From contig OZ240235.1 of the NCBI GenBank assembly GCA_965197965.1, positions 90,621 to 154,620 of the forward strand: DNA of 64,000 nt. The letters run 5' to 3'. This DNA comes from Dehalococcoidia bacterium. GTDB lineage: Bacteria; Chloroflexota; Dehalococcoidia; Lucifugimonadales; QGNO01. Positions within the stretch are counted from its first letter, which is position 1; the number at the start of each line of letters is the position of its first letter. The translations under genes were made by a program, and so were the position numbers. The notes under the pieces were generated by a model. It was not told the origin of the DNA. It saw only the letters and a program-made list of their open reading frames with translations, and did not search any database. Below are positions 3,743 through 41,807 of the stretch, one piece after another.

Positions 3743-4666
3743 TCATCTCGTTGTCTCAGGCGTAGCCTCTTCCCGTAGTTGTTTGGGCAGCACGAACGTG
3801 AAGTTCTCATCCGCTATGGACGCTACGCGAACGTTCTTGGGCTTCAGTCTATCCACTACGGCTTCCACCAGCCATTCCGGCGTTGAAGCGCCGGAAGTAA
3901 TACCCACGCTTTGCATGCCTTCCAGCCAGGCATCGTCTATGTCGTCGGGGCTATCGATGAGATAGGCCGGTCTACCGGCGGCTTCGGCAGTTTCCCTCAA
4001 CCGGTTGCTGTTGGAGCTGTTCTGTGCTCCTACAACCAGGACCAGTCCAACATCGGGCGATATGGCCTTGAGGGCGTTCTGCCTGTTGGTAGTGGCGTAG
4101 CAGATGTCGTTGCGAGTTAACAGGACGGGAAATCTCTCTTTGAGAACGGCTATGACCTCTGCCGTGTCGTCCATGCTCAGAGTGGTCTGAGTTAGAGCCA
4201 CCACCCTGTCGGGGTTTTCAACCTGTACCTTGGCCGCCTCTTCAGCGGTTTCTATGAGGATAGTGCTTTCGGGGGCTTGGCCCAACGTGCCATCGATTTC
4301 GACGTGTCCTCGGTGACCTATGAGGATTATGGTATAGCCTTCACGCGCGTACTTCTGGGCTTCCAGATGGACCTTGGTGACCAGCGGGCAGGTGGCGTCT
4401 ATGATGTTCAATCCCCTGTCCTGGGCCTGCTGCCAGACGGTAGGGGAAACGCCGTGCGCTGAAAAGACCACGACGCTGCCCTCTGGGATATCGTCGACGT
4501 CTTCCACGAAGATGGCCCCTTTGTCCCGCAAATCGTCCACGACGTGAGAGTTGTGCACGATCTCGTGTCGAACGTAAACGGGGGGCTGGAAACGCTCCAA
4601 GCATAGTTCTACCACGTCAATGGCGCGAACCACACCTGCACAAAACCCTCTGGGTGAGCTGAGCAA
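3743..4666 (-). CDS. ispH: 4-hydroxy-3-methylbut-2-enyl diphosphate reductase
   Basis: N-terminal SPRGFCAGVVRAIDVVE, HEIVHN and TCPLVTKVH motifs of IspH/LytB. TTG start as given in the track; the true start is uncertain. Confidence 0.9.
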   Translation of the reverse strand: MLSSPRGFCAGVVRAIDVVELCLERFQPPVYVRHEIVHNSHVVDDLRDKGAIFVEDVDDIPEGSVVVFSAHGVSPTVWQQAQDRGLNIIDATCPLVTKVHLEAQKYAREGYTIILIGHRGHVEIDGTLGQAPESTILIETAEEAAKVQVENPDRVVALTQTTLSMDDTAEVIAVLKERFPVLLTRNDICYATTNRQNALKAISPDVGLVLVVGAQNSSNSNRLRETAEAAGRPAYLIDSPDDIDDAWLEGMQSVGITSGASTPEWLVEAVVDRLKPKNVRVASIADENFTFVLPKQLREEATPETTR

Positions 4667-4805
4667 GACTTCTATGATCGGCCTCTCTCTCGCTGTTCAG
4701 AGCGCCGGCGTTGCGTCAACTACCTGGTTCACAGGGTGGACGGCAAACTCCGTTGGAGGCTAGCATTGAGCTTGCCTCAGTGTCAAGCTTTTGTGCTGGT
4801 TCAGG

Positions 4806-4840
4806 GGCTTTGTATCAAAAACCATTTTTAATACAAAGCC
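4806..4840. promoter_or_regulatory. 35-bp AT-rich palindrome in the ispH / 4993 divergent intergenic region
   Basis: GGCTTTGTAT-CAAAAACCATTTTTA-ATACAAAGCC. The outer 10 bp are perfectly self-complementary, and the inner A5/T5 tracts extend the pairing with one mismatch. Confidence 0.5.
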
Positions 4841-4992
4841 GTCGGACTCATTGGGAAGTGCAGAATTCTCCCCGTTGTGGATTAGGGGACCCTGATGTGA
4901 TGACATCCCCTCTGGCGTATGCGAGAATTTCCGGTAGGTCAACTCCGGTGTAGGTCAACGCTACCGACCGAACCGGCCGAAGGAGGAATGAG

Positions 4993-5235
4993 ATGGCAAG
5001 ACCGAAAAGCAGCAGCCGCCTCCTATTGTGGATCGGCGGAGTCATCCTGGCCGCCGGAGCGGTGATCATCGGAGGGTTCTGGGTGTACGGGATCACGACC
5101 GCCGAGGACATGCCGCTCCTGCTAATGGTGGTCCTCCTCGGCGTTCCGGTCGGGTTGGCCGTCCTGCTGATAGCCGCGATACGAGACAGAATCGTTAACA
5201 AGAAGAAAGAGAACTTTTTGGAGGTCGACCATTGA
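4993..5235 (+). CDS. small membrane protein (two predicted TM helices)
   Basis: GAAGGAGG RBS upstream of the ATG. Hydrophobic stretches LLLWIGGVILAAGAVIIGGFWVYGI and LLLMVVLLGVPVGLAVLLIAAI. Stop overlaps the start of the YbjQ gene. Confidence 0.6.
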   Translation: MARPKSSSRLLLWIGGVILAAGAVIIGGFWVYGITTAEDMPLLLMVVLLGVPVGLAVLLIAAIRDRIVNKKKENFLEVDH

Positions 5236-5546
5236 TCATAACAACGACCGACACGATACCGGGCGCCACAATCGTTGAGACGCTTGGACTGGTGCGTGGC
5301 AGCACAGTGCGCGCCCGTCACATTGGACGAGACATCATGGCAGGGCTCCGTAACATCGTCGGCGGCGAGGTCGGCGAGTACACCAAGCTGTTGGCGGAGG
5401 CCCGCGAGGAATCGCTTCAACGCATGATAGAGAGCGCCGAGGGCATCGGCGGCAACGCCATTGTCGGCATGAGGTTCATCACTGCGGGCGTGGCGCAGGG
5501 CTCAGCGGAGATTGTCGCCTACGGCACGGCTGTCAAAGTAGGCTAG
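5232..5546 (+). CDS. YbjQ/UPF0145 family (heavy-metal-binding-domain-like) protein
   Basis: IITTTDTIPGATIVETLGLVRG...GGNAIVGMRF...VAYGTAV is the typical YbjQ pattern. TTG start overlaps the TGA of the upstream ORF. Confidence 0.75.
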   Translation: MIITTTDTIPGATIVETLGLVRGSTVRARHIGRDIMAGLRNIVGGEVGEYTKLLAEAREESLQRMIESAEGIGGNAIVGMRFITAGVAQGSAEIVAYGTAVKVG

Positions 5547-5632
5547 GTTTGTTTGTCTCGTACTAGCTAGGCAGCCATTGCGCAATCTATGCTGCTGCTG
5601 GCATACGGGCAGCAGGGGCAGGAGAGGCGCGG

Positions 5633-5736
5633 CTAGGAGACGCCCTGCCGCGACAGGTAATCGTGGAGGCGTTCCAGGGTTTTGCGGTTCTCTTAGAGAG
5701 AGAATCCGTCCACGGCGTAGGCGCGTTCTACCTTGA
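5633..5736 (-). pseudogene. dead duplicate of the last ~34 codons of the DUF4392 gene (6576..7427)
   Basis: Reads VKVERAYAVDGFSL*ENRKTLERLHDYLSRQGVS*. The live end reads FKVERTYAVDGFPLEENRKTLERLHDYLTQQGIS*. The relic carries an in-frame stop and has no upstream ORF. Confidence 0.8.
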
Positions 5737-5796
5737 CACTGATGCAGCTTTAACCTAGTCTGATGGCTAGTCAGCACAATGAATAAAGAGGTTAGC

Positions 5797-6057
5797 ATGA
5801 GCAAGAGATGGCCGGTCCAGGATGCCAAATCGAGGTTTAGCGAGCTTCTAGACACCACCCTCACGGAAGGGCCACAGATTGTAACCAAGCGAGGTGTGGA
5901 AGCCGCCGTCCTCCTTCCCATTGAGCAGTGGCGGAGGCTGGAGCGGATGACGAGACCGGATCTGAAAGAGTTGCTGCTTGCCCCTGAGGCGCGAACCGAG
6001 GCTCTTACGTCGCCGCGCCAGCAGCGCCGTCGTCGACCACCTGTAGTGGTGGAGTAG
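5797..6057 (+). CDS. vapB: type II antitoxin, Phd/YefM-like (partner of VapC)
   Basis: MSKRWPVQDAKSRFSELLD...GPQIVTKRGVEAAVLLPIEQW is the Phd/YefM pattern. ATG 5797 has an AAGAGG RBS; the track start 5779 is less likely. Confidence 0.8.
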   Translation: MSKRWPVQDAKSRFSELLDTTLTEGPQIVTKRGVEAAVLLPIEQWRRLERMTRPDLKELLLAPEARTEALTSPRQQRRRRPPVVVE

Positions 6058-6060
6058 CCC

Positions 6061-6468
6061 ATGTACCTCTTAGACACCAACGTGGTTTCGGAGCTGCGTC
6101 GCCTCCGTCCGCATGGCGCAGTTCTGGATTGGATTGCAGACGTGCCGGCGGAGCAGCTGTTTGTGTCTGCCGTTACGGTTGGCGAGATACAGGCGGGGAT
6201 CGAGATCACCCGTGAGCAGGATGAAGCCAAGGCTGAGGAGTTGGGAGCGTGGCTGGACAATGTCCTGGCTTCCTACGGCATACTTCCAATGGATGCGCTC
6301 TCCTTCAGAGAGTGGGCGCGGCTGATGCACAGGAGATCAGGCGCTATGACCGAAGACGCCATGATAGCGGCGACAGCCATGGTTCATAGGTTGACGGTGG
6401 TCACTAGAAACGTGGCCGACTTTAGCGACCTTGGTGTTGACTATGTGAATCCGTTTGAAAGTGGATAG
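6061..6468 (+). CDS. vapC: PIN-domain toxin VapC
   Basis: MYLLDTNVVSELRR start and TRNVADF near the C-terminus. Lies 3 nt after the antitoxin stop. Confidence 0.85.
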   Translation: MYLLDTNVVSELRRLRPHGAVLDWIADVPAEQLFVSAVTVGEIQAGIEITREQDEAKAEELGAWLDNVLASYGILPMDALSFREWARLMHRRSGAMTEDAMIAATAMVHRLTVVTRNVADFSDLGVDYVNPFESG

Positions 6469-6504
6469 GCAGGGGGCTGGTTCAAGACCCCGCCGCCGCT
6501 CATG

Positions 6505-6563
6505 CCCTTCGACTATGCTCAGGATGAGCGGCCCCCTGGATGCCCGTTGCCACTGGCATGACG
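6505..6563. repeat. REP-like doublet (CCCTTCGACTATGCTCAGG unit plus GGATGC-hairpin-GCATGACG unit)
   Basis: GGATGCCCGTTGCCACTGGCATGACG at 6538-6563. Same architecture as the units elsewhere in the window. Confidence 0.7.
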
Positions 6564-6575
6564 AAAGAGGTGTGG

Positions 6576-7427
6576 CTAGGAGATGCCCTGCTGCGTCAAG
6601 TAATCGTGGAGGCGTTCCAGGGTTTTCCGATTCTCTTCCAGGGGAAATCCGTCCACGGCGTAGGTGCGTTCTACCTTGAACCCGTCCACTGCGCCCACGT
6701 CGACCATCTGCTTGACGACCTCTTCTTCTTCCTCCGGCGAGGGCAACAGGTTCTGTTTTGCCTGCAGGGAGAGGCCCGCTATGAGACCGGAAGCGCCCCA
6801 GTTGGAGACGCTGGCCAGGATCAGCTTGTCGGTGGGGACTATGGTGGGCTGCGGGGGCAGAGTATCGATGGTGGGGATTTGTTCGGCCAGCTTGCCCATG
6901 CCTATCTCGTTGCCGCCGTCTCCAATGCCCACGGTGGCGTTGTGGTCGAGCACAAGATAGTCCACCCTGGCGTTGTACTCCGTGATATCGACGCCACGCA
7001 TGTTCAGATATTCGCCCTTCTGAGTCAGGCCGCAGCGCTCGGTGGATATGACGACCGAGGGCTTCAAGTCGCCCAGGAGCTCCCGGGCAAACTTCCGGCT
7101 GGAGTCTTCGTCCGTAACGGGGAATTCGACCACTTCGCCCACGTCTGAAAGGCAGTTGTAAAGAGACGAACTGAACTCGTCGGTGACGTGTGTGACGTCG
7201 TAGCCCAACTGTTGCAGCGCTTTGCCGATGAAGTAAGCGCCGGGGGGGCCATCGGTCTCCGAGGCCATGGCTCCTACTATGAAGAAGCCGCTGATGACGA
7301 AGGCGCGTCCCGGGTTGCGGAGGACCAGATGCGCCGCGTCTTCGCAGTAGTCTTCCGGTAGGTATCCACGCAGCTTGGATATGCCTCTCTGGTCGCGGTC
7401 AAGGATGATGTCTTCTATAGCGGACAC
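6576..7427 (-). CDS. DUF4392 protein (N-terminal-domain homolog of D-glutamate cyclase)
   Basis: ETDGPPGA, VISTERCG and GIGDGGNEIGMG motifs, which I associate with DUF4392. Adjacent to a DUF1445 gene. Confidence 0.6.
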   Translation of the reverse strand: MSAIEDIILDRDQRGISKLRGYLPEDYCEDAAHLVLRNPGRAFVISGFFIVGAMASETDGPPGAYFIGKALQQLGYDVTHVTDEFSSSLYNCLSDVGEVVEFPVTDEDSSRKFARELLGDLKPSVVISTERCGLTQKGEYLNMRGVDITEYNARVDYLVLDHNATVGIGDGGNEIGMGKLAEQIPTIDTLPPQPTIVPTDKLILASVSNWGASGLIAGLSLQAKQNLLPSPEEEEEVVKQMVDVGAVDGFKVERTYAVDGFPLEENRKTLERLHDYLTQQGIS

Positions 7428-8270: not shown

Positions 8271-8348
8271 GCGCTAGTTGTAGGAGGATTCTAGCAGTGG
8301 CAGGGCAGGCGGGCAAGCGGCGTGGGGGAGGGCAGGTAGGCAAGGTGG

Positions 8349-8396
8349 GCATACAGGCATACAGGCATACAGGCATACAGGCATACAGGCATAAGG
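8349..8396. repeat. tandem octamer GCATACAG x5 plus one degenerate copy
   Basis: Perfect copies at 8349, 8357, 8365, 8373 and 8381, then GCATAAGG at 8389. Lies in the divergent intergenic region between 8270 (-) and 8446 (+). Confidence 0.95.
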
Positions 8397-8445
8397 ACAT
8401 ATTGCTGTGACTGACAGCCGCCGCATCGTGGGGTACAATCCGGCT

Positions 8446-19083: not shown

Positions 19084-20865
19084 TTGGAACCGAGAAATTA
19101 TGCCTTGGCCAATCTCTTTGAGGGGTACGTTGTGTACGTTGTCCCAAACTATCAACGTCTGTACGTTTGGAACCAAGAGGATCAATGGGAACCGCTGTGG
19201 TCAGATGTGGAGGACATTGCCAATGACCTTGTCAGGGATGCCATAAGAAGAGGTCGCGAGAACGTTGATCCCGACTCAGTGGAATCCCACTTTCTTGGAG
19301 CTGTAGTACTGAAGATAAGTGGAAGTACTCCCGATCTAGCAAGACAGTTACGTGTCATCGATGGTCAGCAACGCCTTACAACTCTTCAGATCCTGATGGG
19401 TGCTGCTGTGAGCGAACTTGACCGCCACGAACTAACAACACCTGCGAAGCGATTGCGAAACCTCATTGTAAATCCATCTGAAGCCGACTCATTCAAAATC
19501 AAGCACCAGGCACACAGACTCGGACACGACTATGAGAAGTTCGGTGATGTGATGGGTAAGGCGAGTCACGGTGATAGCACAGATGATATTAGTGGTTCTA
19601 TGGCAGAATGCTATCGATATTTCCAGCGGGCTATAGGAGAATGGCTCAGCTCACAGGATCAAGTTCATATAGCTGGGTCTGCGCTTGCCACTACGCTAAT
19701 CATGAAGCTTAACGTAGTTGGCATCTATCTGGAAGGACACGAGAAGGAACATATAATTTTCGAGACACTAAACGCACGTGGCGAGCCATTGACCGAATGG
19801 GACAAGATCAAGAATTATTTGCTCTACAAGGCAGACGAAACGCCTGGACTGAAGCAAGAATCATTTTTTGAGAAATACCTGGATCAGTTTGACGATCCTT
19901 GGTGGCGTCAATTGGTGGGGCGTGGTGTTCAAAGGCCTCGTAGCGACGTCTTCGCCGACTATTGGCTGGAGTCATATAAGGGAACCCCCGTTGCAGTACG
20001 CCGAGTATTCCGGGAGTTTCAAAAGTACATGGATGGCAAGAACCAAGGTCTAGAACCAATGATTGAGGAATTGGTCAGAGACGCACGATACTTTCGGGAC
20101 TTTGAACAACTGGACCCAAGCAATCACAGCAGAGAGGCATTGTTTCACAGCAGACGTCTAGCCATGGGAGCAGGTGCAATCTGGCCTTTGTTACTGCAAT
20201 TGCAAAGAATGCCTATTGACCAACAGGATCGAGAGCGCTGCCTAGTTGCATTAGAAAGCTACCTTGTACGAAGGCTGATTGTGGGATACCAGGCACGTAG
20301 TTATGACCAAGTAGCTCTAGATTTGCTCAACTCTCTAACGACAAAGAGTGACATAAGCCAGTCTCTATTGAATCATCTGTTGAAGTACTCGGAAGCCGCA
20401 ACTCTCTGGCCGAGCGACGAGGAAGTTAGAAATGCTGTCCTGAATAGACACCTGTCGCAGTACGCTCAACGCTTAGTGCTTTCCGCAGTGGAAAAACACT
20501 TGATTACAAACAAAGCTGCTAACCCGCAGCTATTTGCTAACCTTCATGTCGAACACGTTATGCCTCGAGCGTGGCAACCTTCATCTTGGCCGTTGCCTGA
20601 TTCGAGTGACGTAGCTTCGGCAGAGGAAAAGCGCGAAAAGGCCATCAATACTCTCGGGAACTTAACGCTACTTAATGGCCGTTTGAATTCGTCGATTAGC
20701 AATGCTGCTTGGAATGTGAAGCGTGAAGCAATTGCAGAGTCTGACAACTTGTTCCTCAATCGTCGCCTGCTGAAGCAGTCCTTGGACACTTGGATGGAGA
20801 AAGATATAGCGCGTCGAGGAAGATGGATGTATGAGTCTATCGTTAAGATCTGGCCGCGAGGCTAG
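19084..20865 (+). CDS. GmrSD-type type IV restriction enzyme-like protein (DUF262 + DUF1524)
   Basis: N-terminal YQRLYVW and VIDGQQRLTTLQILM (DUF262). C-terminal HVEHVMPRAW...GNLTLLNGRLNSSISN His-Me finger (DUF1524). TTG start with GGAGG 10 nt upstream. Visibly lower GC than its neighbours. Confidence 0.85.
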   Translation: MEPRNYALANLFEGYVVYVVPNYQRLYVWNQEDQWEPLWSDVEDIANDLVRDAIRRGRENVDPDSVESHFLGAVVLKISGSTPDLARQLRVIDGQQRLTTLQILMGAAVSELDRHELTTPAKRLRNLIVNPSEADSFKIKHQAHRLGHDYEKFGDVMGKASHGDSTDDISGSMAECYRYFQRAIGEWLSSQDQVHIAGSALATTLIMKLNVVGIYLEGHEKEHIIFETLNARGEPLTEWDKIKNYLLYKADETPGLKQESFFEKYLDQFDDPWWRQLVGRGVQRPRSDVFADYWLESYKGTPVAVRRVFREFQKYMDGKNQGLEPMIEELVRDARYFRDFEQLDPSNHSREALFHSRRLAMGAGAIWPLLLQLQRMPIDQQDRERCLVALESYLVRRLIVGYQARSYDQVALDLLNSLTTKSDISQSLLNHLLKYSEAATLWPSDEEVRNAVLNRHLSQYAQRLVLSAVEKHLITNKAANPQLFANLHVEHVMPRAWQPSSWPLPDSSDVASAEEKREKAINTLGNLTLLNGRLNSSISNAAWNVKREAIAESDNLFLNRRLLKQSLDTWMEKDIARRGRWMYESIVKIWPRG

Positions 20866-20875
20866 AGGTTAGCTC

Positions 20876-22189
20876 TCATTCAATATGAAGTTCGGCGGGG
20901 GCCTGCCTCTTCTGCGGCGGATATGCAAACAGCGCGGCTATGCCGCAAGCCACCGGCAGGGCCATGAACACAAAGATAGCCACCGTGTACCCGTTGGTAA
21001 GGTCGAACAGAATGCCGAAGGGTAGGGGGCCCAAGGCGGCAAAGGCCACCATGCAGGTTGTTACCACTCCTCTTATACTGCCCAGGTAGGTGCGGCCGTA
21101 GTAGTTGGGCCAGATCACCGAATTTGTAGTCATGAACAATCCGCCAGCCAGACCCAGCATTCCCCCGAATATGAACCCCTGCCAGGCTTGAGATATGACC
21201 AGAGTCAATAGCATGGCCAGACACAATAGGCCCTGGCCCACCACCAGCAGATAGCGGTTTGGCAAACGGTCTGCAAGAAATCCGGCGATGAATGCGCCCA
21301 CGATAGCAAGCGGCGCTATCACACTCAATATGGATGCGGCCACGCCGGCGTCCAGGCCTCTGCTGCTCATCACCGAAACGTGGTGAAAGACCAATGCGGT
21401 GCTGATCAAGGACTGAGACGACCCGGCGAATACGAGCAGCCAAAACGACCTGGTAGCCAGGGCTTCTCTGAGGGAAAAGTTGGTCTCGACGAACCGGGAG
21501 CCGCTGCTGCTACCGCCAGCGGCGACGGCAGAGGCGGAATCGCCGTCGGGTAGAAGCCCGACCGCCTCCGGGCTGCGTCGCACCAGCAGCAGAGAGGGCA
21601 ACACTACCACCGCCCAGATGATGAAGCCAAGCACAACCCAAGCATTCCTCCAGCCGTAGTTGCTGATGAGCAGATAGATGAGCGGAGGGAAGGCGGCCTG
21701 GCTGGCGGCCATGCCCAGATGGTAGATGGCGGTGACCTTTCCTCGCTTCCGTACGAACCAGATGACGACCAAGGTTGTAGGGATAAGCGAAAGAGAGCCT
21801 TGCCCAAGCGTTCGTAGGGCGGCGAAGCCCAGGTAGAGGTGGAAGACGTGCTGTACGTTGCTCATCCCTATGGCGGCAAATCCGAATAGTGTTGCCACCA
21901 CCGCCAGCATCACTCGCGCCCCGAACCTGTCGAGGAGCCGGCCTACCACCACCATCGTCGTGGCCGCTGTGAGGGAACCGGCGGTGTACAGCCCGGCAAC
22001 CATGGTCCTGGACAAGCCCAGGTCGTCGATGATGGGGTCTACGAAGACCGATACTCCGTAGGTCTGACCGGGACCGGACATAAAACCGGCGGCGCTGGAG
22101 ACGACGACGATTACCCAGCCGTAGTAGAAGGGGAGGCCTGTGACTAATGAGCGCTTGGTAGATTTCACAACCCTAATATAGTAACCCAC
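20876..22189 (-). CDS. MFS transporter
   Basis: About 12 hydrophobic segments and an MFS-like GRLLDRFGAR loop. Start uncertain (GTG 22189 or GTG 22168). Stop lies 10 nt from the GmrSD stop. Confidence 0.8.
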   Translation of the reverse strand: MGYYIRVVKSTKRSLVTGLPFYYGWVIVVVSSAAGFMSGPGQTYGVSVFVDPIIDDLGLSRTMVAGLYTAGSLTAATTMVVVGRLLDRFGARVMLAVVATLFGFAAIGMSNVQHVFHLYLGFAALRTLGQGSLSLIPTTLVVIWFVRKRGKVTAIYHLGMAASQAAFPPLIYLLISNYGWRNAWVVLGFIIWAVVVLPSLLLVRRSPEAVGLLPDGDSASAVAAGGSSSGSRFVETNFSLREALATRSFWLLVFAGSSQSLISTALVFHHVSVMSSRGLDAGVAASILSVIAPLAIVGAFIAGFLADRLPNRYLLVVGQGLLCLAMLLTLVISQAWQGFIFGGMLGLAGGLFMTTNSVIWPNYYGRTYLGSIRGVVTTCMVAFAALGPLPFGILFDLTNGYTVAIFVFMALPVACGIAALFAYPPQKRQAPAELHIE

Positions 22190-22261
22190 CGTGTCACGTG
22201 GGTGGGGACGGGCAAATTAGGCAAACGGGCAGGCGGGCAAGGCGGGCCGGGTGGTCCGGAC

Positions 22262-22705
22262 TCACTCATCCGGTTCTTCTTCCAACGCTACTCCGGGAGG
22301 AATGGCAAGCCTTCTATGTGATATCGGCGGCGTCCCAGGAACACAACTCCAAGGTTCCTGGTGAACCTCGCTTCCGTCCGGTTGGAAGATACGCATCCTC
22401 GCGGGTTCAATGTCTTTGCAATGCGCTATCTTTGCGGTCCTCACGCACTTGCCGTCTAGGACATAGCTGACTGCGGAGGCGACATTGTGCATTGTTTCAG
22501 AGAGAGCTATACGGTCTATGGCAAACATACCCATTTGAATATGCCTGTCCATTTCATCATCGAATGGCCGTCCATAGACCGACTCAGCCTCCGCAATGTT
22601 GAAGGATAGTATCTGCTCCACGGTATGTCCTTCTATAACGACGTGCGCCCAACGTACGTTCACGTCTCTAATCTCGCAGGCTTCCTCCCTTACTTCCGCT
22701 GTCAT
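22262..22705 (-). CDS. hypothetical protein (148 aa), third gene of the unknown trio
   Basis: ATG 22705 with GGGAG 6 nt upstream. No motif recognised. One 60-nt line inside it is 24/60 GC. Confidence 0.55.
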   Translation of the reverse strand: MTAEVREEACEIRDVNVRWAHVVIEGHTVEQILSFNIAEAESVYGRPFDDEMDRHIQMGMFAIDRIALSETMHNVASAVSYVLDGKCVRTAKIAHCKDIEPARMRIFQPDGSEVHQEPWSCVPGTPPISHRRLAIPPGVALEEEPDE

Positions 22706-22819
22706 AATCAACTCCCTAGTGTAGCTCCCTAAGCGGTGGCTAAGCGGTGACGGTATCGGTCGTAGTCAAGACCCGTCTGGCGGAATGTTCGGATTGATGA
22801 AGGTTCTTTCAATCCAACC

Positions 22820-23905
22820 CTAAGTGGCCGTTACCATTTCCCAAATGCCCTTTATCTGGCACACTACTTTATCCAGGACACGCCCGTATTCCGCTCCGGT
22901 CTTCAGGTAGATTGGCACGTCGTAAAGCCAACCACTATCCCCTAATTCGACCAGTGAGGGTACTTTGTCCCGAAGGTGTGCAGTGTTGATTGGGACGTCG
23001 CTGCCAATCCGTAGCCACAAGGGAGTATCACCACTGGTTGCCCAGAGGCGGTAATTCACGCACAGGAACAAGTAGCCGGAGATCACTTCTCCCTGGTCAT
23101 TCCTGAACCTGAAATACCGCCCATAGCCATGCCTCTGCGCCGTAGCTCTAAGGCCTCTGACAGACATCCAGCGTTCCGGTCGGCCACGACTGTCAACCAC
23201 GTCGTCTATAAGGCGATTGAGCCACCGGAGCCTGCGGGGTACTGAGGGGCTGAGTTCTGCTGTCCTGATGGGTTGGAAGGCCTCGTCGTCCTCCCGTTGC
23301 GCCAGTCCACGGAGTTGTCGAATGTCTGAGGCAACCGAGGAATCGGGAGGCACGGCGGCTGCCAGGCGGTCGAGGAGCAGAGGCCAGCTAACCAGCATCA
23401 GCCGCTTGTCCTGGTAGTCTGCGCCCGTCACCCTGGCCCTGTGCACTTGTGTGAGTGTTTCGACCGCATTCAGCTCAACCCCATCCGGCCCGCTCTCCAT
23501 CTGGCGTTTTATCTCCGCCCACAGTATCTGCAGCCTGGTGGCGGGAGCGATGAACAACAGCACACCCGGCCCTGCGTCCTTCAGTTTTTTGAAGTAGCCG
23601 CTGGCCTGTTCCTCCTGAAGGGTGGCCCAGAACTTCGACTCTACGAGCAGCCGATTCCCGCCCCCTTGGTCATAGCCCACCATGTCCGGGCGAGACCCAT
23701 CCTTGTACGTCACCTGCGTATCGAATCTGGACAGGGCATCTAGCTGGTAGGAGTCCTCTCCTTCTCTCAGCAGGAGTCCCAAAGCATCACGGCAGGTAGG
23801 GGAATTGTTCAGGATGAAGGCTAGAGCGTCGGTGGCTGCGTCCTCCACGCGACTGGTAATGCGCGGCACCAAGTGAGCGAGCAGGGTGGTGTCACTGTCG
23901 GGCAT
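22820..23905 (-). CDS. PD-(D/E)xK nuclease-like protein with an unknown ~250-aa C-terminal domain
   Basis: Literal motif SRPD74MVGYDQGGGNRLLVE89SK91FWA after the acidic helix EDAATDALAFIL. Strong RBS AAGGAGGAGG. Confidence 0.6.
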   Translation of the reverse strand: MPDSDTTLLAHLVPRITSRVEDAATDALAFILNNSPTCRDALGLLLREGEDSYQLDALSRFDTQVTYKDGSRPDMVGYDQGGGNRLLVESKFWATLQEEQASGYFKKLKDAGPGVLLFIAPATRLQILWAEIKRQMESGPDGVELNAVETLTQVHRARVTGADYQDKRLMLVSWPLLLDRLAAAVPPDSSVASDIRQLRGLAQREDDEAFQPIRTAELSPSVPRRLRWLNRLIDDVVDSRGRPERWMSVRGLRATAQRHGYGRYFRFRNDQGEVISGYLFLCVNYRLWATSGDTPLWLRIGSDVPINTAHLRDKVPSLVELGDSGWLYDVPIYLKTGAEYGRVLDKVVCQIKGIWEMVTAT

Positions 23906-23929
23906 GGAGAACCTCCTCCTTATAATCCT

Positions 23930-24292
23930 CTAACTTTCGTAAGCCGGATTGGTCGGATAGTCCTCTGGCTTCCCCGTGTCGCCGGGCTGGATCACGAAGT
24001 CCCGGCGGTCCCGATATAGGCTGGCGCGGTTAATCACGTTCTCGCCATCGGGGTCGAAGCCGTCCCACTGGCTGTTGAACCAGTATTTGAAGTCACCGAT
24101 GAATAGATACTTGTTGCTCACGCGGAAGAAGCGGCAGGCTACGCCCTCGCCGTCAAGGAAGCGGGCGTAGATGGCGTCCAGCAGTTCCCGCTGTCCGTCC
24201 TTCTGGCTGAGGACGTATTCATGGGGCCAAGTGTCTCGGTAGGTGACCGCCTCACGCCAGGGGGCGCGGGCGATGAGTTCCGTCAGTTTCAT
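23930..24292 (-). CDS. hypothetical protein (120 aa), first gene of the unknown trio
   Basis: Aromatic-rich: TYRDTWPHEYVL, FIGDFKYWFNSQWDGFDPDG. No family recognised. Lies 24 nt upstream of the nuclease-like gene. Confidence 0.55.
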   Translation of the reverse strand: MKLTELIARAPWREAVTYRDTWPHEYVLSQKDGQRELLDAIYARFLDGEGVACRFFRVSNKYLFIGDFKYWFNSQWDGFDPDGENVINRASLYRDRRDFVIQPGDTGKPEDYPTNPAYES

Positions 24293-24418
24293 TCTCTATC
24301 GATTTCCTCATGCGGGGCATTGTCCAAGTGATGATAGCAGAAATCACAGAACTACCTAGGCGATGAACAATTGAAAATGTCAAGGTGAAAAAATAATCCG
24401 TTTTTAATCAAAAATACC

Positions 24419-25984: not shown

Positions 25985-25995
25985 GAAGGGCGGGG

Positions 25996-34379: not shown

Positions 34380-34406
34380 ATAGCGGGTAGCAAACACAGA
34401 CTGGCA

Positions 34407-34503
34407 GCACGCGCTTGGATTCCCGTGTCAAGCACGAGAATGACGAAAGGGAAGGGAGGCGCTAGACGGCTGGCTTGTCAGTATGTCTCCAGCTATCTTG
34501 CGG
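34407..34503. repeat. direct-repeat copy 1: REP unit plus dead 3' end of the hydantoinase gene
   Basis: 97 bp, matching 35228-35325 (98 bp) at roughly 85-90% by hand alignment. The minus strand reads RKIAGDILTSQPSS; the live end reads RKIAGDILTRPAV*. Confidence 0.85.
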
Positions 34504-34520: not shown

Positions 34521-35231
34521 TCAGGACGGCAGCGCCTGCCGCGCCCTCTTGAAAATGTTGTCCAGCATAGGCTGAGTGAGTCTACCCGTCTGGGTGTTCT
34601 GGCGGCTGGGATGATAAGAGGCAATGAAGGTTAAGTTTGGAGCTAGCTTATATTCGAGTCCGTGACCGAATTTAGGCTTAGGGGAGGGGAGGGGGCGTTT
34701 AAGTGCCTTCCAGGCCTTGAGAAAGCTATCGAAGGCGATTTTGCCCAACGCTATGACCACTTCGACGTTCCTCAGAAGCTCTAGCTCGGCCAAAAGGTAA
34801 GGCTGACATCGCCTCAACTCCTCCGATTGGGGCTTATTGTCTGGCGGAGCACACCTCAAAGCCGCCGTGATGTACATATTCTTCACCACCAAGCCATCGC
34901 CTCTGTGGGTCGATAATGGTTGGTTGGTGAAATCATATTTGTACAGGGAGCGAAACAGCCATTCACCGCTACTATCTCCAGTGAACATACGTCCCGTCCG
35001 ATTGGAGCCATGGGCGCCAGGAGCCAGACCAAGAATCAATATCTTGGCCGATTCATCACCGAAGCCCGGAACAGGCCGGCCCCAGTAATCGCAGTGGCTG
35101 TACATGCGACGCTTCTTCCGGGCGATGGCCTGTCGGTGCTCCACCAATCGGGGACACTGAGCACATGAGATTATTCGTTGGTTCAGTTGCTGAAGGGTGA
35201 CCATTACAGGGTGTAGCTCCGTTGGCGGCAT
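34521..35231 (-). CDS. uracil-DNA glycosylase, family 5 (UdgB)-like
   Basis: GLAPGAHGSNRTGRMFTGDSSG motif and CAQCPRL Fe-S cysteines. Start uncertain: ATG 35231, ATG 35204, or the track's TTG 35252, which lies inside the REP unit. Confidence 0.8.
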   Translation of the reverse strand: MPPTELHPVMVTLQQLNQRIISCAQCPRLVEHRQAIARKKRRMYSHCDYWGRPVPGFGDESAKILILGLAPGAHGSNRTGRMFTGDSSGEWLFRSLYKYDFTNQPLSTHRGDGLVVKNMYITAALRCAPPDNKPQSEELRRCQPYLLAELELLRNVEVVIALGKIAFDSFLKAWKALKRPLPSPKPKFGHGLEYKLAPNLTFIASYHPSRQNTQTGRLTQPMLDNIFKRARQALPS

Positions 35232-35325
35232 GCGCCTGGATTCCCGTGTCAAGCACGAGAATGACGGAAGGGGAGGGGAGCGCTAGACAGCGGGTCTTGT
35301 GAGTATGTCTCCAGCTATCTTGCGG
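35228..35325. repeat. direct-repeat copy 2: REP unit plus live 3' end of the hydantoinase gene
   Basis: GGATTCCCGTGTCAAGCACGAGAATGACG at 35238-35266 is identical to 34417-34445. Confidence 0.85.
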
Positions 35326-36713
35326 GGGATGAGCTTGCCCTCACCGAGCGTTCCCACCAGTTTGCGGTCCTCTATCATTACCTTGCCGCGCAGGGTCACG
35401 GTTACGGGCCAGCCTTCTATCTGCCAGCCCTCCCATGGGTTGTAATCGTAAAGGTGTAGGTCCTCCATTGAGAGCGTCTTCTTGATGTTGGGGTCTATTA
35501 TCGTAATGTCGGCGTCGCTGCCCGTGGCTATGGCGCCCTTTTGGGGGTAGAAGCCAAGTATTTTGGCGGGATTGGTCGACATGATATCGACGTAACGCTC
35601 CAAAGACATTCCTTGCTTCACCACGCCGTCCGAGTATGCTACCCCCATCCGGATTTCTATGCCTATGTTGCCGCCCTGGACGTCCACCACCGTTCTGCCC
35701 CTTGTCTTTCCGGCGTAATCCGTAGCTATGGCGTCAGTGGCCAGGATGCTCAGGTCTCCCACGATTAGGCCGTCCCAGAGCCGCAGCCTGTCCTCCTCCG
35801 ACTTTGTGGCAGGGTAGGTGTGGTATTTCATACCATCGGATTCTTTGTAGTTTTCGGAGTTGAAAGAGGCGTAGAGGAGGATGGTTTCGCCGTATACGGG
35901 GTATCCGCGCCTCCTCGATTCGGCTATGGCGTTCACGCCCTCCTTGGCGCTGGTGTGCACTATGTACATGGCGGAGCCGGTATGCTCGGCGGCGCGTATC
36001 ACCCGGCGTACCGACAGATCCTCCGACAGGTTGGTGCGGATCGTGGGAAGGTAATACCAGTCCCAGGTCTCGTTCTCAGCGGCCCTGGCGTAGTTGTACT
36101 GCACTATTTCGTCGTCTTCCGCATGAATGGCTACGATGCCGCCGTGCTCCGCGGTTTCCCGCATGATATCCACCAGCTGGCCCATGTCTATCATGGTGAC
36201 CGGCCGGTTTGGCCTTGGAGCGTGGTTAGTGGTGAATATCTTGACGCTGGGGAAACCAGCAGCTACGAGGTCCTTTATCTGCGAGATGGTCTGCGGATTG
36301 GCGTTCGGGCCCCGGTAGGTGCAATGAGCCGAGTAGTCTACGTACATCTTGTCTTGGAACATGGCCATGTGGTCTTGGACGGCTCTCACCATGTCTCCGT
36401 GCTTGGCATCGGTAACGCTGGCGAAGTCCATCATGGTGGTTGTGCCGCCCCAGAGCGCGCCCAGGGACAGGTCTTCCGGGCCGGCGGTGTTATTGCCCCA
36501 GCCGGGGGCCAAGTGGGGGAATCCCACGTGGGTATGCGCTTCTACGCCGCCGGGCACAACGATCTTGCCAGTGGCATCGATGGCTTTTTTTGTTTCGGGT
36601 AGGGCATCCGGCGTGGCTACGGCCACAATCTTCTCGCCAATGACGCCTATGTCCCACTGGCCGATGCCGGCCGGAGTCACAACATGTCCGCCTCTTATTG
36701 TTAGGTCAAGCAT
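35283..36713 (-). CDS. D-hydantoinase / dihydropyrimidinase family amidohydrolase
   Basis: GGVEAHTHVGFP metal-binding HxH region, about 476 aa, cyclic amidohydrolase architecture. AGGAGG RBS. Confidence 0.85.
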   Translation of the reverse strand: MLDLTIRGGHVVTPAGIGQWDIGVIGEKIVAVATPDALPETKKAIDATGKIVVPGGVEAHTHVGFPHLAPGWGNNTAGPEDLSLGALWGGTTTMMDFASVTDAKHGDMVRAVQDHMAMFQDKMYVDYSAHCTYRGPNANPQTISQIKDLVAAGFPSVKIFTTNHAPRPNRPVTMIDMGQLVDIMRETAEHGGIVAIHAEDDEIVQYNYARAAENETWDWYYLPTIRTNLSEDLSVRRVIRAAEHTGSAMYIVHTSAKEGVNAIAESRRRGYPVYGETILLYASFNSENYKESDGMKYHTYPATKSEEDRLRLWDGLIVGDLSILATDAIATDYAGKTRGRTVVDVQGGNIGIEIRMGVAYSDGVVKQGMSLERYVDIMSTNPAKILGFYPQKGAIATGSDADITIIDPNIKKTLSMEDLHLYDYNPWEGWQIEGWPVTVTLRGKVMIEDRKLVGTLGEGKLIPRKIAGDILTRPAV

Positions 36714-36718
36714 AGCTA

Positions 36719-36767
36719 CCTCCTGGCCCGTCTTGGCGCGGGCGGCCTTCAGCGAGGTGAGTAGAGG
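36719..36767 (-). pseudogene. relic duplicate of the 3' end of the DUF2277 gene
   Basis: Minus strand reads PLLTSLKAARAKTGQE; the live end reads LLTSLKTIHTKTG*. About 35/49 nt match 36838-36886. Conserved flanks are CCTCCT.GCC.GTCTTGG and TTCAGCGA. Confidence 0.5.
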
Positions 36768-36776
36768 TGCGCTTTG

Positions 36777-36836
36777 GTTATATGTCCGCTTGTCTGCCTG
36801 CGACGCAGATTCTTCGCTGCGCTCAGAATGACGGTT
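36777..36836 (+). repeat. 60-bp long REP unit (one of three near-identical copies)
   Basis: GGTTATATGTCCGCTTGTCTGCCTGCGACGCAGATTCTTCGCTGCGCTCAGAATGACGGT. Other copies at 10623-10682 and 44559-44618, same orientation. Confidence 0.85.
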
Positions 36837-36841
36837 TCCTC

Positions 36842-37057
36842 CTAGCCTGTCTTGGTATGTATGGTCTTCAGCGAAGTAAGCAGGGCCTGGGACGCCAGAC
36901 TTATCTCATCGATCGCTTGATTGAAAGCGGTCTCATTGGCTCGCGAGGGCTTGGCATAGCCGCTGATCTTGCGCACGAATTGCAGCGCGGCGGCGCGCAC
37001 GTCTTCGTCATTGACCGTGGCGTCCGGGCTGCGCAGCTTCTTGATACTTCGGCACAT
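36842..37057 (-). CDS. DUF2277 domain protein
   Basis: MCRSIKKLRSPDATVNDEDVRAAALQFVRKISG matches the DUF2277 N-terminal pattern. Confidence 0.7.
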   Translation of the reverse strand: MCRSIKKLRSPDATVNDEDVRAAALQFVRKISGYAKPSRANETAFNQAIDEISLASQALLTSLKTIHTKTG

Positions 37058-40660: not shown

Positions 40661-40748
40661 GTTACGCTGCTGTGTAGAGGATGCGTGAGCGTCTGCGGAA
40701 GGGCCGGGGAAATCACGGGCATAGCTCTGCGTATAATACTGCCCAGAG

Positions 40749-40771
40749 GCGTTTGAATTGAAAGAACGGTG
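40749..40771 (+). repeat. 23-bp perfect direct repeat, copy 1
   Basis: GCGTTTGAATTGAAAGAACGGTG, identical to 41379-41401. Confidence 0.95.
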
Positions 40772-41366: not shown

Positions 41367-41789
41367 TTGCCGGGGGAAGCGTTTGAATTGAAAGAACGGT
41401 GGTTGAATCATCCCCCTGCTTGTACATGCGTAGAGTGCACGAACAAGCGATTAGGTAGGAGACATCGGGCAGAGCGTGAGAGGCGTGAGCGAGAAGAACG
41501 TGTCCGCCAACGGCAAGAAGCCCAACGCCGTGTCGAGCGATTGGGCAGCGGGCCGAGATTGGCCCTTGGTTCACGACCGGAGGACTTTAGTGCCTTTGAG
41601 CGGTCATTCAAGCGTAGAGGTCGGCGATTCGCTTTTGGAAATGTCCTGGGCGTCTCCTTTTTCGTGGGCGTTGCAATCCTGACCGGAGCCGTTTCGGGTG
41701 TCCTGCTCATATATCCTATCCTTCCCGACGCAGCCGTTGGAGTGGCGACAGATATGCAGCAATGGGTCGGCAGGGTGTTTGGTCGCTGA
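41367..41789 (+). CDS. hypothetical membrane-anchored protein with a charged Arg/Glu-rich helix
   Basis: CTCVEC motif, RRHRAERERREREERVRQRQEAQRR, and C-terminal TM segment FAFGNVLGVSFFVGVAILTGAVSGVLLIY. TTG start uncertain. Confidence 0.4.
   Translation: MPGEAFELKERWLNHPPACTCVECTNKRLGRRHRAERERREREERVRQRQEAQRRVERLGSGPRLALGSRPEDFSAFERSFKRRGRRFAFGNVLGVSFFVGVAILTGAVSGVLLIYPILPDAAVGVATDMQQWVGRVFGR
41379..41401 (+). repeat. 23-bp perfect direct repeat, copy 2 (inside the 5' end of ORF 41367..41789)
   Basis: GCGTTTGAATTGAAAGAACGGTG, encodes AFELKERW of the ORF. Confidence 0.95.
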
Positions 41790-41807
41790 TTCTACTTGGG
41801 GTGAGTT

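Follow-up and report, generated by a model that had tools for sequence, protein, structure and literature searches.

Results

A predicted toxin-antitoxin operon lies between two copies of a gene end

The window that we analyzed is a 64-kb stretch of DNA from a SAR202 (Chloroflexota) bacterium. Near its left end, a small operon of the VapBC type lies beside the 3' end of a gene of the DUF4392 family (Table 1); the synteny of this gene with a D-Glu_cyclase gene is kept in all relatives. Both predicted operon products score above the Pfam cut-offs (PF02604, 56.7 bits against 29.8; PF01850, 62.8 bits against 23.6), the two genes share a strand and are separated by a 3-nt gap, and an 86-aa gene is called at the vapB position in relatives. 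A repeat search and self-BLAST showed that the operon is bracketed by a 114-nt ungapped direct repeat (88% identity, E = 2e-34), referred to below as case 1. The first-pass annotation had reported 12 mismatches over 106 nt of this repeat (5631-5736 and 6574-6679), and a recount gave exactly 12. It had taken the right-hand copy to be the live gene end, as indeed it is, the reading frame closing with EENRKTLERLHDYLTQQGIS and a stop codon, and the left-hand copy to be a dead relic with an in-frame stop, which agrees with its translation (AVDGFSL-stop-ENRKTLERLHDYLSRQGVS-stop). The intervening 837 nt, annotated as vapB, vapC and a REP doublet, were found to hold a Phd/YefM gene, a PIN-domain gene and two hairpins. 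Across the lineages compared, the distance between the repeats is 795 to 837 nt, and the contents are only vapBC and hairpins.

Table 1. Features of the repeat-flanked sites in the 64-kb window
Feature	Positions	Strand	Evidence or remark
Case 1, distal dead copy of DUF4392 gene end	5623..5736	-	105 nt coding with in-frame TAA, stop codon, about 9 nt downstream
Case 1, left cassette edge: CTTGAC hexamer (-35-like), then two CTAGTC[TA]G boxes	5731..5778	+	Conserved in six unrelated contexts
Case 1, vapB-type antitoxin gene, Phd/YefM family, 86 aa	5797..6057	+	Pfam PF02604, E = 2e-15
Case 1, vapC toxin gene, PIN domain, 135 aa	6061..6468	+	Pfam PF01850, E = 6e-17
Case 1, hairpin repeat (CCGCTCAT...ATGAGCGG type)	6469..6531	+	Folds as hairpin
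Case 1, REP copy (GGATGCC...GGCATGACG)	6532..6573	+	Member of the window REP family
Case 1, proximal live copy, functional DUF4392 gene 3' end	6566..6679	-	Repeat search, translation
Case 1, DUF4392/D-glutamate cyclase-like C-terminal domain gene, 283 aa, insertion target	6576..7427	-	Pfam PF14336 (GLUCM-like_C/DUF4392), E = 4e-68
Case 2, distal copy: frameshifted last ~30 nt of amidohydrolase gene plus REP copy	34402..34503	-	Absent from close relative L113
Case 2, gene between copies: uracil-DNA glycosylase (UDG) superfamily	34521..35207	-	Pfam PF03167, E = 2e-29; also in L113
Case 2, proximal copy: live end of amidohydrolase gene 35283..36713 plus its REP	35223..35325	-	Alignment
Case 3, distal copy of DUF2277 gene end, stop TAG to CAG	36719..36764	-	Now supplies the amidohydrolase ribosome-binding site
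Case 3, insert: ~65-nt REP/MITE-like element	36765..36837	+	Second copy at ~44557-44620
Case 3, proximal copy: live end of DUF2277 gene 36842..37057	36838..36883	-	Comparison with L113
Case 4, first copy: 26-nt leader plus GTG start before orphan 185-aa ORF	40746..40771	+	Alignment
Case 4, second copy: leader plus GTG start before next ORF	41376..41401	+	Alignment

The same junctions recur in related genomes

The first-pass annotation had suggested that a discrete cassette landed in the 3' end of the DUF4392 gene. Relatives at 78% protein identity bear this out, since there the DUF4392 gene is followed by another gene, with no vapBC operon and no second copy of the gene end. No empty site was found within the clade, so that the pre-insertion state is inferred from these relatives, for all that they are just 78% identical. 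All relatives have the left copy as a fragment, contrary to what would be seen if it were the end of a second full-length paralogue. The relic/cassette junction, at which CATCAGTGTC is joined to AAGGTAGAACGC, is the same in the window and in L001, L002, L004, L083 and L093-L102. Related SAR202 genomes have the same junctions at the vapBC/DUF4392 locus in five or more assemblies that were made independently, from long and short reads; given this recurrence, the structure is no assembly artefact but a single old insertion. The shared junctions show case 1 to be a single ancestral event.

The relic/cassette joint lies at 5736/5737, where the pentamer CTTGA (5732-5736) is common to the gene (GTTCTACCTTGA followed by ACCCG) and to the conserved edge of the cassette. 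Scars of illegitimate recombination carry 3 to 10 nt of microhomology at the novel joint, and CTTGA falls within this range; an overlap of 5 nt could also be due to chance. The second junction has been blurred by later REP insertions, and a GGGGCT microhomology found there in L093 is only suggestive.

The operon has conserved edges in unrelated contexts

DNA homology to cassettes in five other contexts begins at CTTGAC (5731/5732), and the flanks are unrelated; likewise, the sequence upstream of the left cassette edge is unrelated in each of the six contexts, all of which retain the two CTAGTC[TA]G boxes upstream of the predicted vapBC genes. At the other end, homology to the other-context cassettes stops in the terminal ~90 nt of vapC, at a point that varies with the context (6379-6461). 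A consensus promoter scan called no promoter at the left edge. From these boundaries, the cassette shows itself to be a minimal unit of foreign origin, running from its putative promoter to the stop codon. A retro-copied (cDNA) origin was rejected because the conserved cassette contains its own -35 region.

Two other assemblies encode exactly the same predicted VapC protein, and strains with ~96 to 97% DNA identity across the aligned locus show 100% conservation of vapC. Homologues at E <= 1e-20 number 7995, and the 120 matches listed are all 81 to 99% identical. In the plasmid collection there were only distant VapC matches (65%), on Mycetohabitans plasmids, and in the phage collection there were none. 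Exact-protein look-up of the DUF4392 and amidohydrolase proteins gave no match.

Cassettes homologous to vapBC in two further contexts (L135-L141) had no flanking repeats, from which it appears that the repeats are not intrinsic to the cassette. The 6469-6531 hairpin is also present in the L093 lineage and is absent from the homologous cassettes of other organisms; it arrived with the cassette or soon after. The 6532-6573 REP copy is missing from the L093-L102 lineage, which has 9 nt in its place, and is a later, lineage-specific insertion.

The dead copy has decayed and has been converted by the live copy

The in-frame stop of the relic is shared by the window and L001 and is lacking in L002, the relic of L096 carries frameshifts, and in two lineages (L004 and L083) the relic has been shortened to ~60 nt. 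The relics of L093 and L096 differ at 18 of 105 sites and their live copies are identical; from vapB onward these two lineages are 100% identical, compared with about 80% identity in the relic. At this locus, homologous exchange is documented among lineages, its breakpoint falling inside vapB. Furthermore, the 3' half of the L093 relic equals its own live copy, lineage-specific substitutions included, and the center of the L002 relic equals the L002 live copy. Comparison of the copies shows the relic to have undergone fast neutral decay and occasional gene conversion from the live copy. As a consequence of gene conversion, the date of the event and the identity of the copies at birth are unreadable, and conversion and later recombination together have erased any donor tract.

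The sole nearly fixed difference between relic and live copies is GCG versus GCA, at which the outgroup matches the live copy. The near-identity of the ancestral live and dead copies supports a probable duplication in situ. The codon positions of the mismatches ([7,1,5] and [4,2,6]) have little power to tell whether the relic came from a foreign functional allele, and selection acting on the live copy confounds the comparison. L083 has an intact vapB and an internal deletion in vapC.

Searches for mobility functions and known element classes

No integrase was present next to the site among the genes called in five lineages. A recombinase is absent from the window ORFs scanned: they include no integron integrase or tyrosine recombinase, no reverse transcriptase and no RAYT-type transposase, and the only mobile-element gene in a Pfam survey of them encodes an rve transposase 18 kb away. 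The first-pass annotation could assign the structure to no element class, and none of the known classes that we compared fits. The 114-nt repeat includes the last 105 nt of the target gene, as in integrative elements, which the integrase search in the locus genes of five lineages and the scanned window ORFs did not otherwise support. The live repeat copy is coding sequence of the neighboring gene and folds like its shuffles (z = -0.03), unlike an attC site. The repeat search found no inverted repeats at the cassette ends of the kind that bound transposons, insertion sequences or MITEs, and duplication lengths are not fixed (111 to 115 nt in case 1 and 26 to 103 nt at the other sites). As to a diversity-generating retroelement, none of the 14 mismatches falls at an A of the non-coding copy.

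REP elements and the other repeat-flanked sites of the window

About 14 copies of a REP unit, a short imperfect palindrome (GGATT...AATGACG) whose hairpins were confirmed by folding, occupy intergenic spacers of the window, 13 of them on the plus strand and two within case 1. An Rfam scan of the window matched only tRNA, the REP elements belonging to no described RNA family. Copying of a REP with its flank to the next spacer was not supported for case 1, as the REPs beside the relic differ between lineages.

The first-pass annotation had seen the architecture of case 1 again at 34.4, 36.7 and 40.7 kb (cases 2 to 4). The sites do exist, but they differ in kind. In case 2, the copies are identical at 92 of 103 positions, with one indel, and the direction of change is ambiguous because L113 lacks the second copy and yet has the UDG gene. 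Case 3, with 34 of 46 positions identical, has an empty site in L113 that reads TAGGAGGTAGCTATG; this comparison supports the insertion of a REP element of 65 nt that duplicated 46 nt of its target, and the insert is no gene cassette. A sliding identity scan of the window against L113 revealed no imported divergent tract beside the case 3 relic. Case 4 is a 5' leader duplication, a 26-nt repeated leader (25 of 26 positions identical) in an islet (40680-42609) in place of which L113 has other DNA. A 40-nt repeat at 52540/53891 was rejected as a further cassette, as it reflects only the similarity of two paralogous dehydratase genes. With the cases this heterogeneous and case 1 a single ancestral event, the proposal of a recurrent, gene-end-directed mechanism seen four times was not supported.

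Similar cassettes at other SAR202 loci

In another SAR202 genome (L076), a ParE cassette lies between 47-nt repeats of the uvrB 5' end, and in L079 a DUF2283-type cassette lies between 88-nt repeats of a DUF4392 gene 3' end. The L079 repeats are 96.6% identical, but a recent event was rejected because the cassette is shared with relatives at 76% nucleotide identity. A metagenome scan showed the cassette to be old and one relative to lack the relic, so that the high repeat identity reflects gene conversion. The distal copy in L079 has a longer, native-looking C-terminus and runs on into native downstream DNA. A polymorphic HicAB cassette 2 kb from the case 1 cassette has no flanking repeats. 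Three TA cassettes of the case 1 architecture, of which two sit at the 3' ends of DUF4392 homologues, occur in ~1.3 Mb of SAR202 DNA, and this could hint at something more specific than chance and selection.

Discussion

Case 1 is an ancient insertion of a small TA operon at the end of the DUF4392 gene of a SAR202 bacterium. It looks like a recombination scar rather than a new type of mobile element. We favor, with a probability of roughly 55%, one ancient, recombinase-independent illegitimate insertion that was mediated by microhomology and duplicated its target, the cassette being kept by TA addiction. On this reading, a horizontally mobile, minimal vapBC operon (~740 nt plus the hairpin repeat) would have entered the chromosome of an ancestor of this SAR202 clade at the DUF4392 3' boundary. 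Two joints 111 to 115 nt apart on the target would have formed, at least one of them at the CTTGA microhomology, placing the last 35 codons, the stop codon and ~9 nt of downstream sequence on both sides of the insert. The copy joined to the gene body would have stayed under selection, and the other, non-functional copy would have been free to gain stops, frameshifts and truncations, to be converted at times by the live copy and to be exchanged together with the variable left flank. The cassette would persist despite deletion-prone direct repeats because loss of a TA pair is counter-selected; in the sole decaying lineage, the toxin gene has gone first.

Intergenic spacers in this genome are only ~10 to 140 nt long. 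Because the spacers are so short, a duplication of 50 to 115 nt survives only if it spans a gene terminus and so leaves one copy of the gene intact, and insertions will look gene-end-directed. The preference for gene ends is thus probably a matter of survivorship in a tightly packed genome and not of targeting. The lack of flanking repeats at the homologous vapBC cassettes and at the HicAB cassette, and the copying of a 5' gene end at the ParE cassette, also favor survivorship. The molecular route could be staggered-break DNA capture with fill-in, replication template switching or homology-facilitated illegitimate recombination. Target duplications of 46 to 115 nt are far longer than is usual for bacterial illegitimate insertions, and our literature search found no published experiment that yielded them.

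A Campbell-type integration, in which a circle carrying vapBC and ~110 nt of the DUF4392 gene end (excised, for example, from a relative between its own flanking repeats) entered by a single RecA-dependent crossover, is possible but doubtful. In its favor, the architecture matches insertion-duplication exactly, the ancestral copies were close to identical, and the repeats are recombinationally active, as judged by gene conversion and by the inter-lineage exchange with its breakpoint inside vapB. Such a crossover would, however, leave the origin of the first molecule joining cassette and gene end unexplained, and CTTGA at the cassette edge points to an illegitimate joint there. Moreover, no circular form, plasmid or phage relative was found in the plasmid and phage collections, and the precise loss that it predicts was seen in no lineage.

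Prophages, ICEs, IMEs and CIMEs integrate at the 3' ends of tRNA or protein genes and restore those ends from attP, and case 1 resembles them in that direct repeats of a gene 3' end flank the insert and the gene is intact. It is quite unlikely, in our view, that case 1 is the remnant of such an element, with the DUF4392 3' end as attB, a surrogate end supplied by attP and all except vapBC later deleted. Two independent lineages do have a cassette at a DUF4392 3' end, TA modules are typical last survivors, and gene-3'-end integration that restores the gene by direct repeats is the classical signature of integrative elements (PMC5812530). What case 1 lacks is an integrase, between or beside the repeats in five lineages or in the scanned window ORFs, and its insert is just ~0.8 kb (795 to 837 nt). 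The repeats have no special secondary structure and no identical core with diverged arms, there is no third copy and so no sign of tandem accretion, and the ancestral live and dead copies differed very little, which does not suit a foreign attP surrogate.

Among bacterial rearrangements, tandem duplications are the most common, and REP sequences often take part in them. A duplication of ~940 nt (gene end plus cassette) at a locus where vapBC was already adjacent, followed by deletion of the second cassette, would be one such route, and tandem duplication would also suit case 2, where the UDG gene is present in L113 but the second copy is not. For case 1, we think this improbable: two or three events are needed, with a deletion ending exactly at the cassette boundary, and the microhomology sits exactly at the conserved edge of a mobile cassette. 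The distal copy in L079, with its native-looking C-terminus and native downstream DNA, also favors insertion.

A dedicated, undescribed SAR202 mechanism that moves small cassettes and REPs with target duplications of ~45 to 115 nt seems just as improbable. It would account for the architecture common to the vapBC, ParE and DUF2283 cassettes and the 65-nt REP with its verified empty site, as well as for up to four such sites in one window, and the 13:1 strand bias of the REPs suggests an active process based on single strands. Against it, duplication lengths of 26, 46, 47, 88, 103 and 114 nt are unlike those of any transposase, the cassette ends have no motif, inverted repeat or hairpin in common, there is no duplication at the homologous cassettes (L135-L141) or the neighboring HicAB cassette, and the window ORFs scanned contain no candidate enzyme. 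An assembly artefact, a mis-joined or collapsed repeat, can practically be discounted, given copies that are 12% diverged and a structure that is found again in different samples, assembled independently from long or short reads.

The TA islets of the 2009 work summarized in PMC3184786 are minimal two-gene TA operons that lie between conserved housekeeping genes with no mobility gene. Case 1 is like these islets in that respect and in the variability of the site among relatives, the association with REPs and the toxin-first decay in one lineage; it differs in its flanking 111- to 115-nt duplication of a gene 3' end, of which we found no description for those islets. Orphan 3' fragments at Rhs, CDI and T6SS effector-immunity loci have been attributed to homology-facilitated illegitimate recombination (PMC5361080). 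There, as in case 1, incoming DNA is added without replacement, a dead resident 3' fragment is pushed downstream, a poison-antidote logic favors retention, and a recombinase is not involved; there, however, the incoming DNA brings a 3' end of the same family that displaces the old one (PMC5361080). In case 1, by contrast, the insert is an unrelated operon and the copies of the gene end were nearly identical at origin.

The likeness of the locus to integron cassettes, including the TA cassettes of Vibrio super-integrons, lies in a small, promoter-poor or single-operon unit with direct repeats of ~60 to 140 nt. TA modules are frequent cargo of integron cassettes. Case 1 is set apart by repeats that are copies of the neighboring gene, specific in sequence to the site, with no attC-like fold, and by the lack of intI and attI. 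The window also resembles REP, BIME and MITE systems in its palindromic units in intergenic spacers, and case 3 is an insertion of REP type, although with a 46-nt target duplication where such insertions normally have none or a few base pairs.

The movement of chromosomal TA operons without a mobility gene is a long-standing loose end. Case 1 is a well-documented example and introduces no new principle, but as an insertion scar it is unusually legible: the edge of the mobile unit can be read (from the -35 hexamer to about the stop codon), as can a joint at microhomology and the long duplication of the target. It also displays, over a whole clade, how that duplication later decayed, underwent gene conversion and truncation and was exchanged with the neighboring variable region. 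If long target duplications prove common in SAR202, they could be used to recognize gene gain that needs no recombinase in marine bacteria that are uncultured and gene-dense. A more speculative idea, to which we give little credence, is that the gene-end repeats are themselves a means of spread: recombination between the repeats would excise a circle made up of the cassette and one copy of the gene end, and this circle would re-enter cassette-free relatives at the same gene end by a single RecA crossover and be fixed by addiction. If the repeats did mediate excision and re-integration, this would amount to mobility of a new, minimal kind, that of an integrative cassette that needs no recombinase and brings along part of its target as a portable homology arm. 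Taken with the REP-element case, such spread could reflect a general insertion route in SAR202 with long target duplications.

A vapBC cassette lies between two copies of the end of the neighboring gene

Self-BLAST of the window gave an ungapped 114-nt direct repeat (5623-5736 versus 6566-6679; 88% identity, E = 2e-34), whose two copies enclose a vapBC operon (Phd/YefM antitoxin and PIN-domain toxin). Over the narrower coordinates of the first-pass annotation, its count of 106 nt with 12 mismatches is exact. As that annotation had read them, the right copy is the live 3' end of a DUF4392 gene (protein terminus ...EENRKTLERLHDYLTQQGIS) and the left copy is a dead relic, its translation running ...AVDGFSL, an in-frame stop, ENRKTLERLHDYLSRQGVS and a second stop, while vapB, vapC and a REP doublet fill the 837 nt separating the copies.

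Features of the vapBC locus, of related cassettes, and of other mobile DNA (window positions unless a comparison locus, L plus number, is named)
Feature	Position	Strand	Remarks
DUF4392/D-glutamate-cyclase-like C-terminal domain gene	6576..7427	minus	Pfam PF14336, E = 4e-68
Phd/YefM antitoxin gene	5797-6057		between copies
PIN-domain toxin gene	6061-6468		between copies
Hairpin repeat 1	6469-6531		between copies; folding
Hairpin repeat 2 (REP copy)	6532-6573		between copies; folding; absent from L093 lineage
vapBC cassette	window and its clade		beside DUF4392 gene
Homologous cassette	L103-L112		adjoins cadherin-like gene, transposase-rich DNA
Homologous cassette	L120-L129		overlaps start of type I restriction-modification methylase gene
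Homologous cassette	L135-L138		adjoins molybdopterin oxidoreductase gene
Homologous cassette	L139-L141		between mandelate-racemase-like gene and hisZ
ParE toxin-antitoxin cassette, 507 nt	L076 7842-8442		between 47-nt repeats of uvrB 5' end
DUF2283-type two-gene cassette, 800 nt	L079 5758-6733		between 88-nt repeats of 3' end of distant DUF4392 homologue
Perfect tandem array (GGCATACA x 5.8)	8331-8401		D-Glu_cyclase/CoA-binding spacer
HicAB toxin-antitoxin cassette	L002 7289-7981; L083 3509-4078; L093 6230-6845		same spacer
IS110-family transposase	L001 7308-8510		same spacer
GmrSD-type restriction endonuclease gene	19084-20865		lower-GC stretch
IS481/IS3-like rve transposase gene	24469-25509		lower-GC stretch
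Array of four REP copies	25682-25989		lower-GC stretch
REP copies	about 6540, 8907, 10654, 12356, 25705, 25804, 25854, 25958, 29961, 34419, 35240, 36809, 44592, 48669
dnaN (DNA polymerase III beta subunit)	48828-49979

The structure arose in one ancestral event

The nearest genome records are metagenome-assembled SAR202/Dehalococcoidia genomes. VapC is identical in two other assemblies, L001 and L002, and 93% identical in a further lineage, L093-L102 (the L093 lineage); DUF4392 proteins at 91 to 94% identity occur in L083 and on the closed 2.37-Mb chromosome L004 (OZ220698.1). In every one of these, vapBC adjoins the DUF4392 gene and a second gene-end copy lies beyond the cassette, and the relic/cassette junction (...CATCAGTGTC/AAGGTAGAACGC) is identical in all of them and in the window. 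The assemblies come from different samples and comprise long-read and short-read contigs, so that the shared junction implies one ancestral event and excludes the assembly artefact that the first-pass annotation had considered. Cassette-free relatives, with which it had proposed a comparison, also exist: in L003 and L084-L092 (DUF4392 protein 77 to 78% identical) the gene is followed by a 306-aa gene and lytB, with neither vapBC nor a second gene-end copy. None of the genomes compared has a full-length paralogue to which the left copy belongs.

The live copy is conserved, and the relic shows no visible constraint. An in-frame stop interrupts it in the window and L001 but not in L002; it is frameshifted in L096 and truncated to about 60 nt in L004 and L083, with different DNA beyond. 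From vapB onward, the L093 and L096 loci show 100% identity, whereas their relics and vapB promoters are ~80% identical (L093 3568-3800 versus L096 2227-2460) and the DNA further left is unrelated. In its evolution and recombination the relic thus goes with the variable left flank. The drop in identity places a homologous-recombination breakpoint in the 5' portion of vapB. It borders a variable islet, located between DUF4392 and lytB, whose content depends on the lineage: YbjQ and an 80-aa protein, a coiled-coil protein or a HATPase gene.

The 3' half of the L093 relic matches its own live copy, lineage-specific substitutions included, and the centre of the L002 relic matches the L002 live copy. 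We read these tracts as gene conversion, which makes percent identity between the copies unusable as a clock. One codon (GCG versus GCA) is the only nearly fixed relic/live difference, the outgroup matching the live copy, and the two copies were thus close to identical at the split of the lineages. Such near-identity is better explained by duplication of the resident sequence than by an imported, diverged surrogate end. Integration of a circle with a gene-end fragment by a Campbell-type single crossover is possible at a lower probability.

Direct repeats 0.9 kb apart that demonstrably recombine should lose the intervening DNA; the locus is kept in every lineage of the clade. We infer from established toxin-antitoxin biology that addiction has kept the cassette. 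An addictive pair is expected to decay toxin first, and the one decaying example (L083 6020-6110) has an internal vapC deletion of ~330 nt and an intact vapB.

The cassette is a minimal mobile operon with a probable illegitimate joint

VapC homologues number in the thousands, and the 120 listed are all 81 to 99% identical. Across the five genomic contexts examined, the left limit of DNA similarity to the window is always the hexamer CTTGAC (window 5731/5732), which is followed by two CTAGTC[TA]G boxes, and the right limit varies between contexts but falls in the final ~90 nt of vapC (6379-6461); the flanks beyond are unrelated. What moves is therefore a minimal operon, from promoter to stop, in which no recombination sites were recognizable. 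With these edges defined, and with the 77 to 78% relatives lacking both cassette and second copy, the earlier reading of a discrete cassette inserted at a gene 3' end stands. No flanking direct repeats were found in the two contexts tested (L135-L141), indicating that the duplication is not intrinsic to the vapBC cassette. Many copies of the close homologues in L103-L112 and L120-L129 (85 to 86% protein identity) occur within larger repeated units (adjoining the cadherin-like gene or fused to the hsdM start) on contigs that are rich in transposases and come from the same metagenome samples, which points to extensive exchange of the cassette among co-resident bacteria.

The gene sequence across the 5736/5737 joint is GTTCTACCTTGA/ACCCG, that of the cassette edge (C)CTTGAC, and the two have 5 nt, CTTGA, in common; with a donor like L120, the overlap could reach 7 nt. 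Such sharing is characteristic of a microhomology-mediated illegitimate joint. The other joint, ~9 nt past the DUF4392 stop codon, is masked in the window lineage by hairpin repeat 2. In the L093 lineage, which lacks that REP, it reads GCGGGGCT/GGCGGGGCTAGG, again with a short repeat that is only suggestive as microhomology.

None of the known element classes tested fits the locus; the first-pass annotation could likewise assign none. A recombinase gene would not fit into the space between the repeats. Among the part of the window ORFs covered by a Pfam survey, one encodes an rve-type transposase; the survey gave no recombinase of the tyrosine or serine type, no reverse transcriptase and no Y1 transposase. 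The repeat contained no attC-like fold (live copy z = -0.03) and no diversity-generating retroelement pattern (mismatches at adenines of the non-coding copy, 0/14), and neither terminal inverted repeats nor a close vapBC relative on plasmids or phages were found. A degraded integrative element is a possible but less probable source.

Similar sites in other genomes and in the window

Self-comparison of 93 sequences (905 kb; the window and 92 loci, mostly Dehalococcoidia) gave two further cassettes between gene-end repeats, of the ParE and DUF2283 types. Relatives carry them at the same places, as does L132, there with no repeats or relic; these are therefore also old insertions, whose relics were lost in some lineages and homogenized in others. 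The HicAB cassette polymorphic 2 kb from the vapBC locus had no flanking repeat. No long flanking repeat accompanied any of the inserts at its D-Glu_cyclase/CoA-binding spacer (L001, L002, L083, L093).

The recurrence claimed for 34.4, 36.7 and 40.7 kb held in part: these three sites and the vapBC locus share the architecture but have no common cargo, length or polarity. The 36.7-kb site is the clearest. In L113 (amidohydrolase 94% identical), the DUF2277 stop codon, ribosome-binding site and amidohydrolase start are packed as TAGGAGGTAGCTATG. The window has 119 extra nt there, a ~65-nt REP/MITE-like element and a 46-nt second copy of the DUF2277 end (74% identical) that now provides the ribosome-binding site; no divergent imported tract lies beside this copy. 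The element's second copy, near 44.56 kb (44557-44700), is also absent from L113 (1977-2049) and is flanked by two copies of the neighboring REP (CCCGCCTGCGCGGGAGTGACGG and CCCTGTGCGGGAGTGACGG), so that this site looks like another insertion with local duplication. At 34.4/35.2 kb, the last 43 nt of the amidohydrolase gene and its 60-nt REP lie on both sides of a uracil-DNA-glycosylase gene. L113 has the glycosylase gene without the distal copy, the gene end overlapping a convergent aldehyde dehydrogenase gene; either L113 has lost the copy or the window has acquired it. At 40.7/41.4 kb, a 26-nt leader and GTG start are repeated before two consecutive orphan ORFs inside a 1.9-kb islet (40680-42609) where L113 has other DNA (3990-6154). 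This islet, between a ureidoglycolate lyase gene and an ABC permease gene, also encodes a CAP-domain protein of 251 aa; the one CAP-domain protein that L113 has here is 531 aa long and only 28% identical. A 40-nt, 88% direct repeat (52540-52579/53891-53930) was rejected as a cassette boundary, being conserved sequence of two adjacent paralogous FAS1_DH/MaoC-like dehydratase genes.

The REP family (GGATT-stem-loop-stem-AATGACG) has ~14 copies in the window, between 6540 and 48694, 13 of them in + orientation irrespective of neighboring gene direction. Because GC skew is positive over the entire window, + is probably the leading strand, and the bias may point to a single-strand mode of spread linked to replication. 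Rfam had no matching family, and the window ORFs scanned included no RAYT gene. The lower-GC stretch at 19084-25989 (0.54 to 0.56), several ORFs of which had no Pfam match, is probably a defence or mobile islet; in L113, GmrSD adjoins a TPP-enzyme gene, without the transposase. Upstream of dnaN, the ORF at 48103-48543 encodes a copper-binding protein instead of dnaA, and GC skew keeps one sign throughout the window, so no replication origin is evident there.

A probable insertion scar shaped by selection

The evidence best supports one insertion of foreign DNA, independent of a recombinase, whose two joints lie ~110 nt apart on the target. Intergenic spacers in the window are roughly 10 to 140 nt, and an insertion with a long duplication therefore spares all genes only where a gene terminus falls within the duplicated piece. 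Selection would remove insertions that delete DNA or land inside genes, which would give a non-specific process an apparent gene-end preference, and addiction would account for the dominance of toxin-antitoxin cassettes among the survivors. Given these spacers and the lack of flanking repeats at L135-L141 and HicAB, we prefer non-specific insertion plus selection to the gene-end-directed mechanism first proposed. A dedicated mechanism making long target duplications is possible, with recurrence of the architecture as the sole positive evidence; tandem duplication followed by deletion has a lower probability. Candidate routes for the recombinase-independent insertion would be DNA capture at a staggered break that is then filled in, a template switch during replication, or homology-facilitated illegitimate recombination, a process invoked for the orphan gene ends of Rhs, CDI and T6SS loci (PMC5361080).

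The vapBC locus is thus an unusually informative toxin-antitoxin insertion scar, a variant of two known phenomena, horizontally acquired toxin-antitoxin islets and displaced gene ends, rather than a new element class.
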